The translations under genes were made by a program, and so were the position numbers. Of a stretch of 64,000 nt of DNA, positions 6,088 through 63,365 are shown in pieces (positions within the stretch are counted from its first letter, which is position 1; every line of letters starts with the position of its first letter). This DNA comes from Octopus vulgaris (lineage: Eukaryota). A model generated the notes under the pieces. That model did not search any database, was not told the DNA's origin, and saw only the letters and a list, made by a program, of their open reading frames with translations. The DNA is taken from the NCBI GenBank assembly GCA_951406725.2, contig OX597831.1, positions 69,130,001 through 69,194,000 of the forward strand, read 5' to 3'.

Positions 6088-6553
6088 TATGTATAGAAAC
6101 ACTCAGTGATGTATGGTATATCGGTGTGTAAGTGATTGTATAAGTATGAGCCAATGGATGAATGTATTCTGCATAATGGTACAGTTTTGCATGTGCAGAA
6201 TAACATGTTGAAACTGAATAAATAAACAGACAACGTGCACATTGCAGATCATGGCGAACGTGATAACACACTCATACCGAGCGAATTGAAACTATCAGTA
6301 TTAGTTAGTTTCAAAAGAAGCCATGGATTTAGCAGCATGGAAATCTAAATTTTGCTTACAGAAACAGCAACTGAGTATCGCCTGAAGAGATACATAGAGA
6401 TCTTCTTAAACAGATAAATAGTCAAATAATTTAATTTAAACTTTATATCCTGTATGTACAAGGATCCATATGTATTGAAACATTTGTAGCAGTTAAAAAG
6501 CTGCCTAAACGTACTTACTCTTCCTTTTGACTCTTTTAATTTTTACTTTTTAT
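6055..6553 (+). mobile_element. Inverted copy of the Penelope-like pseudo-LTR at 4608-5095
   Basis: About 460 bp of near-perfect reverse complement of 4608-5095, with only a handful of differences by eye. Confidence 0.9.
6378..6491 (+). ncRNA. Type I hammerhead ribozyme-like motif, long loop II
   Basis: CUGAAGA (6382-6388), stem II GAUACAUA/UAUGUAUU around a 72-nt loop, then GAAAC-AUUU-GUA. Stem I is only about 2 bp, so it may be decayed. Confidence 0.5.
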
Positions 6554-6689
6554 TTTCACACATGAGGAATACCTAAGACTAGAATTGGTAGCATACCATA
6601 AGAATAGTACTGACTATTTGGGAACTCTATGGGTGAACGAGCTCTATTTGTACCCTAATACTTTCTTAACAGAACACACCTCAACTGAC

Positions 6690-6738
<49 letters not shown>

Positions 6739-6784
6739 GTACATATGTGCATATATATATATATATATATATGTACATATGTGC

Positions 6785-6818
<34 letters not shown>

Positions 6819-6849
6819 GTACATATGTGCATATGCACATATATATATA

Positions 6850-7470
6850 TCGATAGGTTTTAAGAGACCGAATCACACTCCAGCAACTCAATCATCATTC
6901 AACGACATTATCCAAGATGGGTCCATATAGAACTAAATATTAAAATTATCAAAATTAATACCTTCAATTCTTATTCCAAATGCTATACTTTACATTATAT
7001 GTACTACGCGCGTTTCATGACAACATATTCCTCGATATTACTGAAATAAAGGTCTCGAAATACAATACCATATTATAACAATTATATTGCCAATCTTCAG
7101 GTCTCGATTATATGAACTTATTTTGCTATTTACATCCTATATAAAGACATGACAAACTAAAATTATTTAAATAGAAGTTGTTGGAATAATTTTACTTTAG
7201 TAAATAATGAACAGAAATGTGGAATAAAAGTAGGAAAAAGAAATGTTAGTAAAAATAACTGTTAACTTATCTGTATGGTAATTTTCTCTCCACAAATTAA
7301 ACATGGCCCGCAACTATTCCCATCATACACTCACTTCTGGCTGCTCCTGATTTATTATTATTCATTTCCCTTACAAGGTTATTAAAAATAATAGTAAATA
7401 CCTTTTAAGAACTTTTAAATGTTAATAAGAATTATCTCCCCTACACAATAGCTATCAATTTTGGATTATA
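6850..7470 (-). mobile_element. Second Penelope-like element 3' end (decayed GIY-YIG tail plus pseudo-LTR)
   Basis: Minus-strand remnant …YDGNSCGPCLICGEKITI, a hammerhead motif at 7001-7105, TA flanks, and an inverted partner at 7478-7720. Confidence 0.6.
7001..7105 (-). ncRNA. Type I hammerhead ribozyme-like motif, palindromic stem III
   Basis: GAGAC-CUGAAGA-U-UGGCAAUAU…57 nt…AUGUUGUCA-U-GAAAC-GCGC-GUA-GUAC. Stem III region ACGCGCGU is a perfect palindrome; stem I is partly mismatched. Confidence 0.6.
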
Positions 7471-7477
7471 CGATTGC

Positions 7478-7720
7478 TGGCAATATAATCGTTTTAATAT
7501 GGTATTGTATTTCGAGACCTCTATTTCAGCAATATTGAGGAATATCTTGTCATGAAATGCACGTAGTATATATAATGTAAGGTATAGAATTTGGAATAAG
7601 AATTGAAGTTATTAATTTTGATAATTTTTATATTTAGCCCTATATGTACCTATCGTGGATAATGTCGTTGAATGATGACTGAGTTGCTGGAGGGTGATTC
7701 TGTATCTTAAAACCTATCTA
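7478..7720 (+). mobile_element. Inverted, diverged copy of 6850-7092 (pseudo-LTR)
   Basis: Reverse-complement alignment by eye over about 240 bp with scattered substitutions. It starts just 3' of the CUGAAGA box. Confidence 0.85.
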
Positions 7721-7819
7721 TATATATGTATATAAGACAGTGAGTAATTCATTTTGGTACCACTAAATTGAACTTCTCTCCCCTGTGAACTCGGAAATAA
7801 CTTCCCTAATATTAATATT

Positions 7820-7875
7820 AATGTATATATATACATATAATATTAATGTATATATATATGTATATATATACACAC

Positions 7876-59965: not shown

Positions 59966-61017
59966 GCCAGGTAGGAGTTAACACTAGTCTATTACAGATA
60001 GGTCTCATAACAAGAAGAATATTTTCTTCTAGTCACACTAGGGAAACTGAAACTCTAGTCAAATAGGGTTGGAGGTTTAAGACAGATTTTATTTTTTGTC
60101 ACCTTATCTTTCATAGGGAGCAAAAGGAACTGTGCTCCTTGAGCTAAACCCTGAAAACATTTTTCAAGTCAGAATGCAAAAAGATATCATGTACATTTAT
60201 TCTGCTATAATTCTATCACAGTACACTTTAGTTAACTAGTTTGTATTAGCTAACACAATGAAGGCTATGCAGGAGCAACTATTTCTATCGCTGATATTAA
60301 CAACTAATAACTATTTCATTATGAGAAACCTATCAATCTTCAGTGTTTCCACGATGATGTTGCTTGGGAAATCTTCGTTAGCAATTTTCCAGGTATGCAG
60401 AAATAATTGCAGCTCCATGATTCTCCAATTTCGTGACATCTTTACTGTATATACCTAGAGAAAGGGAGAGATGGAGAGAGAGAAAAGAAGAGATCGTATA
60501 AGTATGCACGAACGGATATGCACGTGTATGTATATATATATATACAAACACACACACACATACTTTATTATTAAAGTTCCAAATCTTAATCACAACTGTC
60601 CAGTGAATGAGAACAGATAGCTAGTTAGCTAGATAGGCAGATGTGTGCATGGGTGTGTGTGTGTGTATATATATATTCCAGTGGAGTGCAATGGTAGTTC
60701 AAATTATCTGATAATCGTTTATGATTCTCTAATGCAAATGTTACTTATTAAAAAATAAAGGTAAATTGTATTACACAACCACATCTTTCAAGCTCAAAGA
60801 ATACATGAGCTGAGTGCTACTAGGAAGATTTGCATTTGTTACCTTCCAGCAAGTAAGTCTAGTAGTGTAATTTCACAAGTATTCCTGTAATTCAATGACA
60901 AATAATCATATGAATTGATAACATATTGCAGGTCATGATGTTGACACCAAACCAAACTTTATCAACCGATATATGATCAAAGGCATTCCAGTTGTGATCA
61001 TCCCAGCATTTTAGGGT

Positions 61018-61409
61018 TACTCTTTACCCTCTTTTACTTGCTTCAGTCATTTGACTGCGACCATGCTGGAGCACCGCCTTTAGTCGAGAAAATCGACCCC
61101 GGGACTTATTCTTTGTAAGCCCAGTACTTATTCTATTTGTCTCTTTTGCTGAACCGCTAAGTGACGGGGACATAAACACACCAGCATCGGTTGTCAAGCA
61201 ATGCTAGGGGGACAAACACAGACACATATATATATATACATATATACGACAGGCTTCTTTCAGTTTCCATCTACCAAATCCACTCACAAGGCATTGGTCG
61301 GCCCGGGGCTATAGCAGAAGACACTTGCCCAAGATGCCATGCAGTGGGACTGAACCCAGAACCATGTGGTTGGTTAGCAAGCTACTTACCACACAGCCAC
61401 TCCTGCGCC
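61018..61409 (-). mobile_element. SINE family A nested in a family-E repeat
   Basis: Family match; family-E sequence resumes on both sides. Confidence 0.9.
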
Positions 61410-61793
61410 TATGTAAGGCTTCACTATTCATTGTGTTCATTACATGTTTAAGACCGCAAGATGTGATTTAAAGGAGACTTGGTTGCTACTTAATCAGATT
61501 CCTTTGTTGGTTTGTAGTATAAGTAATTATGAGTTGAGATTTGATGAAACTACTTTGAATTAAGCATAGCCATGCAGTACTTGTAGATTTAGATCTGACT
61601 CAGCAGAACTATGATCAAAAGCATAACTAGTATGACCATTACATGTCTTTTTGTTTTTGTCTTTTATATGGTGTGAGTAGGACTTCATTAGCCAATGTGA
61701 TGTTTTTTTTCCAAGAGAGCAGGATATGATTAGAGAGAAAGTTGGTTGATATTTCTAACTGTTCAACATTGTAATACAACAGAGAAAAATATA

Positions 61794-62589
61794 AAGGGTG
61801 TTTGGATTAAATATTACAGTTTGCATAAAAGGAAAAGAAGATACAATAAATACCCCATCTAAAAATAAATGCATTTTAAAAACACAAAAATATTAACTGA
61901 ATTATGGCTGGAAGATAACAGTTTACTCAAAGTAGCCATCCTCAGCTTCCACTATGACCTCAAGATTGCTCCAGGATCTGGCACATGCTTTCTATTTTGG
62001 TCATCAATTTGTCATTGGTGGTGCAGGAAGAGTGGTTGGTGTATTTTGCAACCATGAACCACATATAGTAGAAAATAAGATTACAATTAGGGGGATGAGA
62101 AGGCCAGTAATTGGCACTGGTGAAGTTGTAGAATTTCTCTGACAAGCACTTCTGACACTTTCCAGATATATGATGAGGAGCTGAATCCTCCTGCCACATG
62201 TATAGCATTTCAGCAGCAATCCTCTCCAGCCAGGGATTGACCACAATCTTCAGTGGCTGCCCTTAACAGTCTGAATTAAGCCTAAGGCTGGCCATGGCCT
62301 TATAGTCTCTGTTGCAGCCGTCCATGTCATGCCTTACTGCCTTTACAGTGTTCATAGAACATTGAACAGCAGTCATGGTGCTAGTATCTTGATACCTGGT
62401 GTGAATCATCATGATACAGGTAATTCTTTTCCAATATTCTGATGGCTTTCAGTCCTTCATCTCAGGTAAGTTTTTCTCAACAGCTTTAATCTTTATGCCC
62501 TCCAACACCTTTGACTGTTCACTAATATACCAAGCTGCTCTTGAATAAAAGGAGGCATAATATTTGTCAAATTTAGCCTGAACACTCTG
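61794..62589 (-). mobile_element. Decayed Tc1/mariner element with transposase remnant
   Basis: PWLERI…MWQEDSAPHH…YWPSHPPNCNLIFYYMW matches the QQDSAPAH…WPPNSPDLNP.DY.VW pattern. Diverged TIRs AAGGGTGTTTGGATTAAAT / AATTTAGCCTGAACACTCTG. Confidence 0.8.
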
Positions 62590-62647
62590 AATTTCTCACT
62601 GTTGTATTAATGACTTACATCTATGCATGAGGATTATTTATTAATGT

Positions 62648-62810
62648 AGGTGTTAGTTGACTCAATGGTTAAGAACTTTGCTTCTCAACAAAAATGGTTT
62701 TATGTTTAATCACATTGTAGGGCACCTTGGGAAAGTATGTTATATTACTTGCAGCACTGGGTTGATCAAAGCCTTGTGAGTGGATTTGGTTGAAAGAAGC
62801 CTGTTGTATG
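62648..62810 (+). mobile_element. Old SINE family A, 5' half
   Basis: GGTTAAGAACTTTGCTTC…GGCACCTTGGG…AAAGCCTTGTGAGTGGATTTGGT. Confidence 0.65.
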
Positions 62811-62859
62811 TATGTATGTATGTATGTATGTATGTATGTATGTATGTATGTATGTATGT

Positions 62860-62899
<40 letters not shown>

Positions 62900-63258
62900 A
62901 AGTTTAAAAGTTTAATAATTTATAAATTTAAAATTTAAAATATAAAAATTTATAAATATAAATTTAAAAATTTCAGATTTCAGTATTTTAAATTTTATAT
63001 TTTATATATATTTTGTATATTATATTAATTATATTTATTTTTTGTTTTTTATGTTTTGGTTTATGTCTATCACTGTTTGAGTTGCCTAATAGTGGTTTTA
63101 TCTCTAATTTAATTTATATATATATATATATATATATCACAATCAAGGAACGGCCATAATAGGCCATTCACCCACTAGAAATAACAGCCAAAGCTTTAAC
63201 CGCAAAATAACATTAATTCCGTAAACCAGGAGAAAATTAAAAAAACATTTACCCTGTA

Positions 63259-63365
63259 ATTTCTTATACGATGCACCGTTTCATCTACTGTTTAATGGTA
63301 AACTAACCTGATTAAATTAAATCAAGCCAATCTTCCATAGGCCCTTAGATTCCTCAGTAAGAAAT
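63259..63365 (-). ncRNA. Type I hammerhead ribozyme, complete core and stems
   Basis: Stem I AUUUCUUA/UAAGAAAU (8 bp, perfect); CUGAGGA; stem II AUCUA/UAGAU with a 58-nt loop; GAAA-CGG-UGCA-UCG-UA. GUA cleavage is predicted between plus-strand positions 63267 and 63266. Confidence 0.8.

Follow-up and report, generated by a model that had tools for sequence, protein, structure and literature searches.

Hammerhead ribozymes of Penelope-like elements (PLEs), the model of their action as dimers, the hammerheads of Hydra-clade PLEs and the view of retrozymes as PLE derivatives have already been published. Since hammerheads are known to be associated with PLEs and retrozymes, the advance reported here is architectural and quantitative. 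It concerns a 64,000-nucleotide stretch of the Octopus vulgaris genome (GCA_951406725.2, contig OX597831.1, positions 69,130,001 to 69,194,000, forward strand), hereafter the window, in which hammerhead motifs of PLE type carry a predicted long helix II. Several features are shared with the Hydra-clade hammerheads in the available text of Craig et al. 2021 (PMC8557442): type I order, location at the 3' end of the element, CUGANGA and GAAAC boxes, a palindromic or near-palindromic stem III, U.U at the base of helix II, (TA)n targets and an endonuclease with a CxCX5C linker. However, the Hydra-clade hammerheads listed there have a stem II of 3-7 bp and a loop 2 of 3-10 nt (8 nt in the octopus family Hydra-1_oBim), whereas helix II here is predicted to comprise 23-32 bp. 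The same text mentions relaxed descriptors with longer loops, whose lengths it leaves unspecified. The descriptor of Cervera and De la Pena 2014, as given in the accessible part of PMC4209133, allows a spacer of at most 26 nt and no stem III insert; the motifs described here exceed both limits. A precedent for a longer arm is provided by the PLE-X1 hammerheads of spike mosses, which in the portion of File S2 of PMC8557442 at hand have a loop 2 of about 29-35 nt and are flagged as non-canonical. According to the same source, they differ from the present motifs in that they occur in two plant families only, lack an endonuclease, have a shorter arm and do not dominate the genome. In the incompletely covered literature, no description was found of a 20-30 bp helix II as the dominant form of animal hammerheads.

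The window motifs are likely to be PLE 3'-end hammerheads whose helix II has been lengthened at the tip and kept paired; they would cleave themselves after GUA, probably in a dimer formed through stem III. The positions of four motifs, the letters of stem III, the CUGANGA and GAAAC boxes and the sites at GUA, as reported in the initial annotation, were all borne out on re-reading. A fifth match, absent from that annotation, lies at 4673-4779 on the - strand and repeats motif 1 in inverted orientation. CUGANGA, GAAA and the UH core follow the type I order, and each of the four motifs belongs to its own repeat family (F1-F4):

Hammerhead 1 (family F1), 6377..6493, + strand: core 6382-6388, helix II 6389-6476, GAAAC at 6477, cleavage predicted to follow 6488; a copy in decay.
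Second, inverted copy of hammerhead 1, 4668..4784, - strand: core starts at 4779, predicted cut after 4673.
Hammerhead 2 (family F2), 7000..7105, - strand: core starts at 7100, U.U at the base of helix II, predicted cut after 7005; decayed copy.
Hammerhead 3 (family F3), 56982..57074, + strand: core 56987-56993, helix II 56994-57057, cleavage predicted to follow 57069.
Hammerhead 4 (family F4), 63259..63365, - strand: stem I of 7-8 bp, core starts at 63357, stem III a palindrome of 12 nt, cleavage predicted to follow 63267; intact copy.

The spacers between CUGANGA and GAAA in motifs 1-4 are 88, 77, 64 and 68 nt. A long-spacer descriptor (spacer of at least 40, stem I of at least 2, stem II of at least 5) matched the window five times, against a mean of 0.01 and a maximum of 1 in 100 sequences obtained by dinucleotide shuffling in 1-kb blocks. 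With spacers of 64-88 nt, the motifs lie outside the printed descriptor of minimal PLE hammerheads, so that the suspicion that short-loop descriptors could miss them was justified. Likewise, the hammerhead models of Rfam did not recognise them: a scan of the window gave 114 matches at E<=1, consisting only of microsatellite-driven miRNA and snoRNA noise with no hammerhead family among them, presumably because of the arm length. Stem III of motifs 2-4 is strongly self-complementary, with homodimer energies of -13.3, -10.0 and -17.5 kcal/mol and no stable hairpin in the monomer, as in the dimer type of PLE hammerheads. This property is weak in motif 1, the stem III of which is near-palindromic (ACA-UU-UGU), a form also listed for Hydra PLEs in the available text of PMC8557442. 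Palindromes of 8-12 nt were also seen in stem III of other families (L018:817 on the + strand, L043, L161 and L067); that of L018 is unlike F4 in its letters but self-complementary in the same way, and the AU tip is comparable.

The initial annotation took helix II of these motifs to be capped by a loop of 72, 57, 52 and 58 nt, of similar size among families and possibly carrying a functional module. These sizes are arithmetically right after subtraction of the stem, but the region is not an open loop. In each family, the majority spacer folds into one irregular hairpin, of 32 bp in F1, 25 bp in F2, 23 bp in F3 and 24 bp in F4, with tip loops of 3-6 nt. In addition, the inner region of helix II alone (8 nt trimmed from each side, one random member from each of 43 long clusters) folds better than shuffles in 37 of the 43 clusters (z<0; mean z -1.56, Wilcoxon p 4e-8). 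A fixed size is contradicted as well: spacers run from 9 to 105 nt across 55 clusters, 43 of which have at least 40 nt, 5 have 27-39 nt and 7 have 26 nt or less, in a sample of all retrieved loci that is enriched for long spacers. A sequence module does not appear either. No 5-, 6- or 7-mer is common beyond shuffles in the inner region of the 43 clusters, the first helix segment of which varies from 2 to 18 bp and the tip loop from 3 to 22 nt.

The pairing was also seen in motifs taken without any stem filter. The first 30 loci of the genome pattern search yielded 29 motifs, of which 22 have a stem I of at least 3 bp and 19 form at least six of the seven basal helix II pairs; the corresponding values when halves of unlike families were crossed are 6% and 6.5%. 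The centre of stem III is self-complementary in 27 and the spacer is a single hairpin in 24 (median 18 bp). In 44 motifs from 40 further, hand-picked loci, the same four features were found in 34, 16, 40 and 40, respectively. The spacer is 54-63 nt long in 23 of the 29 unfiltered motifs, which gives a broad mode near 55-63 nt; this mode is partly due to shared descent and sample selection.

Covariation of the helices was observed in a group of related sequences, comprising 22 of the 24 members of three clusters after exclusion of two length variants, whereas the window families were judged by their majority fold. In this group, 89% of the cells are paired (29-58% in slid controls), and two-sided changes occur in 11 of 26 pairs, three of them in stem I, six in the proximal helix II and two in the distal hairpin. 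Helices I, II and III are supported by these data, and the covariation extends to the distal hairpin.

The genome-wide search, performed on a 2.8-Gb assembly of 227 contigs, shows that long spacers are dominant among pattern matches. Using box patterns which cover one type of stem III, and in bins that may overlap slightly through internal boxes, 8,853 matches were found with spacers of 9-39 nt, 24,958 with 40-70 nt and 5,270 with 71-100 nt, compared with 122, 111 and 127 matches to the reversed patterns. Spacers of 40-100 nt therefore account for 30,228 of the 39,081 matches (77%). In the short bin, 73 of the first 100 matches listed have spacers of 26 nt or less (manual count). A chance origin of the motifs was considered and is ruled out by the shuffle controls together with the reversed-pattern controls. 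Since about 77% of the matches have spacers of at least 40 nt, censuses based on the printed short-loop descriptor would overlook most hammerhead motifs in such a genome. The recurrence of one architecture across sequence-unrelated families, as proposed in the initial annotation, is supported both by F1-F4 and by the wider set of clusters.

The way in which the arm was extended is indicated by comparisons among families. Spacer lengths of 21, 28, 49-51 and 61 nt occur among families with identical letters in stems I and III, and low-complexity growth at the tip gives one cluster a range of 55-77 nt. Duplications and expansions at the tip are also visible in single rows of the genome pattern matches. 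Helix II of a hammerhead points away from the catalytic core, and it would therefore tolerate growth at its tip. The tip would grow by small duplications and low-complexity expansions, and selection in active master elements would keep the added sequence paired because the core must still fold. The extension would be retained for its shape and not for its sequence. AU-richness was considered as a driver of elongation; the case is weak, as short arms exist in the same genome and in Hydra, whose genome is AT-rich.

The elements that carry the hammerheads occupy the following positions in the window:

F1 insertion, left arm, 4608..5560, - strand: 5'-truncated 3' end of a Hydra-type PLE, with a short 3' end at (TA)n.
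Broken endonuclease C-terminus inside the F1 left arm, about 5362-5560, - strand.
F1 insertion, right arm, 6028..6689, + strand: tail of about 135 nt (6554-6689) ending in (TA)n.
F2 insertion, left arm, 6852..7336, - strand: short 3' end at (TA)n.
Inverted F2 arm, 7478..7822, + strand: truncated within helix II, without CUGAAGA; tail of about 90 nt.
Remnant of a broken Hydra-type endonuclease, upstream of F3, 56150..56450, + strand: seen beside the window copy only.
F3 repeat copy, 56598..57245, + strand: the hammerhead's 5' half recurs about 320 nt earlier as a diverged duplicate, at 82% identity.
F4 copy, 63136..63365, - strand: 5'-truncated, from a 490-nt non-coding unit, between (TA)n tracts.

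At four loci (L018, L122, L124 and L134), F1 hammerheads are preceded, at a distance of about 0.9-1.3 kb, by a Hydra-type endonuclease with the CxCX5C linker and CxxC/CxH motifs. It is C-terminal and resembles that of Hydra-1_Obim by eye; the thumb region of a reverse transcriptase was seen in L122. In F2, only the C-terminal half of the domain was found upstream, in 2 of 30 copies. Pfam gave no match for a 50-amino-acid piece of the Hydra-type endonuclease, and a regular-expression search for other endonuclease types upstream of hammerheads found only the Hydra type. The clusters with this domain upstream, ten in number, have spacers of 31-94 nt. Two other assignments were examined. A Naiad origin of F1 and F2, prompted by cephalopod Naiads that bear "HHR_half_core" notes at 35-50 nt, is not supported because the endonuclease is C-terminal and of Hydra type. 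The endonuclease remnant beside F3 was considered as part of the F3 parent, but the link was not reproduced: the remnant lacks close copies, the best showing 68-76% identity, and in 29 other loci it is not followed by an F3 hammerhead.

The insertions of F1 and F2 consist of an inverted, 5'-truncated arm, a tail at one end and a (TA)n target. Two fixed 3' ends were found, about 140 nt apart in F1, 90 nt in F2 and 105 nt in F4, usually one per arm (window; L001-L060, L274-L282). Two-ended, inverted insertions are described as PLE footprints in the available text of PMC8557442 and PMC11167929, although the tails of about 90-140 nt are longer here than the 30-40 bp given for published PLEs in the former. 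Together, the core order, stem III, the endonuclease and these footprints support the earlier assignment to type I PLE hammerheads with a palindromic stem III.

About 12 of 30 F1 copies (L001-L030) start in one 10-nt zone, approximately 65-75 nt upstream of the core. This zone, which is not the predicted cut site, might be a transcript start or a strong stop of the reverse transcriptase; the choice of query biases it. A putative SINE-like interspersed repeat is placed between the two F1 arms (window about 5625-6027). Extra CUGANGA boxes are present in F3 (L061-L090), upstream at about 56620-56720 and downstream at 57175, where N7 is A or G in most copies.

The state of the families differs. 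The first look gave 355, 375, 810 and 1969 candidates for the families of motifs 1-4, and 40 per family were scored and 30 fetched. The best-copy identity is 84-90% in F1, 89-94% in F2, 93-96% in F3 and 100% in F4. The core is complete in all its 14 letters in 18, 21, 26 and 30 of the 30 copies, respectively, and stem I of the family majority has 5, 5, 5 and 8 bp. Decay has left only 2 bp of stem I in window copies 1 and 2. The whole-motif fold of window copy 4 is better than shuffles (z -3.5); that of the inverted copy of motif 1 is not (z -0.14). Window copies 1-3 are decayed and copy 4 is intact, and most genomic copies, including window copies 1-3, seem to be decaying remnants.

F4 is a young non-coding tandem element of retrozyme type. 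Its unit has no frame over 61 codons, and no linked endonuclease was seen in the loci examined. The arrays contain up to six units at 98-100% identity, and at least two complete hammerhead units are present in tandem, as in retrozymes without long terminal repeats (non-LTR retrozymes). Among nine arrays, six have two opposed arms, with one short and one tailed end, two are single-armed and one has a broken end; the two-armed arrays terminate in (TA)n at two fixed positions separated by 105-108 nt. A circular monomer is predicted to fold well (z -5.0). In the available text of PMC7229834, animal non-LTR retrozymes are likewise non-coding tandem units with one type I hammerhead that fold well as circles. 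F4 differs from known animal retrozymes in its long helix II, the 12-nt palindromic stem III and regular two-armed insertions. It fits the proposal, in the accessible parts of PMC7229834 and bioRxiv 10.64898/2026.07.22.740005, that retrozymes derive from PLEs and are not autonomous.

Variants of F4 were read from contigs of public runs from four organisms (unphased; 40 of 43 rows shown); none of the listed runs that contain F4 is catalogued as RNA. N7 takes two or three other letters at high share, whereas no change at the 14 other core positions is among the 40 variant rows listed. At pair 5 of helix II, A-U to G-C changes have matching shares. At the palindrome centre, a GC to AU change occurs at equal depth, in agreement with the pairing of one molecule with another. 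It should also be mentioned that A-to-G change sites on the hammerhead strand outnumber T-to-C sites 16 to 1 at L276:4700-4860 in run X1, presumed to be RNA, and that this skew is absent in run X2, also presumed to be RNA (7 versus 5).

Several observations weigh against the interpretation of the motifs as PLE hammerheads with a lengthened, paired arm. Cleavage at the GUA sites is a prediction from sequence and folds, and none of 16 F4 arm starts coincides with the predicted cut. The whole-motif folds of window copies 1, 2 and 3 are not better than shuffles (z -0.5, +1.45 and +0.39), the inner region of F2 is an exception with z of about 0, and stem III of motif 1 gives just -2.9 kcal/mol as a dimer. 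The shuffle control of the 22-sequence group ignores relatedness, and its structure was derived from the same alignment. In the distal helix of F4, 10 of the 12 changes listed keep pairing compared with 64% expected for random transitions, which is not significant (p about 0.14). Shared minor variants of F1 often disrupt pairs; this is expected under neutral decay. As to the host elements, a Hydra-type endonuclease lies upstream in just 10 of the 55 clusters, this being the one PLE clade probed, and the linkage of F3 with an endonuclease was not seen in 29 other loci.

Other explanations assign a different role to the arm or to the motif as a whole. The long helix II might be a selected module, either a dock recognised by a PLE protein through its shape or a substrate for editing of double-stranded RNA, which would switch cleavage. 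This is compatible with growth at the tip of a PLE hammerhead, and we regard it as a doubtful but serious candidate. The prevalence of long forms (77% of the 39,081 matches, across at least 43 sequence clusters), the broad length mode and covariation in the distal hairpin would be explained by it, and, in the available text of PMC11167929, an Anolis PLE hammerhead was cleaved only with the PLE protein. On the other hand, no k-mer is common to the arms, the first helix segment and tip loop vary widely, and short and long forms (21, 28, 49 and 61 nt) whose stems I and III agree in their letters occur within an apparently single lineage; the length mode, moreover, partly reflects descent and sampling. 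The A-to-G excess in run X1 is a weak hint of editing that is without matched DNA and is not repeated in run X2. In its broadest form, the proposal would make the long-helix-II hammerhead the default ribozyme of Hydra-clade PLEs and of their retrozyme parasites in this lineage, the arm of about 20 bp being a selected platform that is read by shape and gates self-cleavage through protein or RNA editing. We put this forward tentatively, as a doubtful but serious possibility. If it is true, over 30,000 long-helix-II copies are invisible to standard searches. The natural series of helix II lengths in related elements, together with the young, intact F4, allows the role of the arm and the need for a protein to be tested directly.

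The motifs might instead be catalytically dead relics, kept for another role in the element RNA such as a signal for reverse transcription or packaging. The copying of F4 arrays of up to six units has passed across the predicted cut, cleavage by metazoan PLE hammerheads is poor in vitro according to the accessible part of PMC4209133, and PLE insertion in vitro did not need hammerhead cleavage in the text of PMC11167929 available here. Read-through would, however, also arise if the template were a circle closed by religation or a multimer left uncut. Furthermore, the invariance of the F4 core except at N7 (in the rows listed) and the compensatory change in the palindrome speak against loss of function, and this explanation is unlikely. 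Still less probable, to the point of being nearly discounted, is the earlier view of an open loop of set size that carries a sequence module and defines a discrete subclass. The calculated sizes of 52-72 nt and the tip region of F1, which is AU-rich and weakly paired, would agree with it. The pairing of the spacer with its covariation, the continuous range of lengths and the lack of a common motif contradict it.

Other elements were seen elsewhere in the window. A broken reverse transcriptase remnant at 12143-13160 (+ strand), with YDSA and RDD motifs, resembles that of Hydra-1_Obim by eye and may represent a further Hydra-type PLE copy. A 381-codon frame at 26004-27149 (- strand) has RVT_1 and PHD-like matches and represents a LINE-type element. 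Between 46200 and 50035, a long, strongly skewed tandem array is found in which all three + frames are open.

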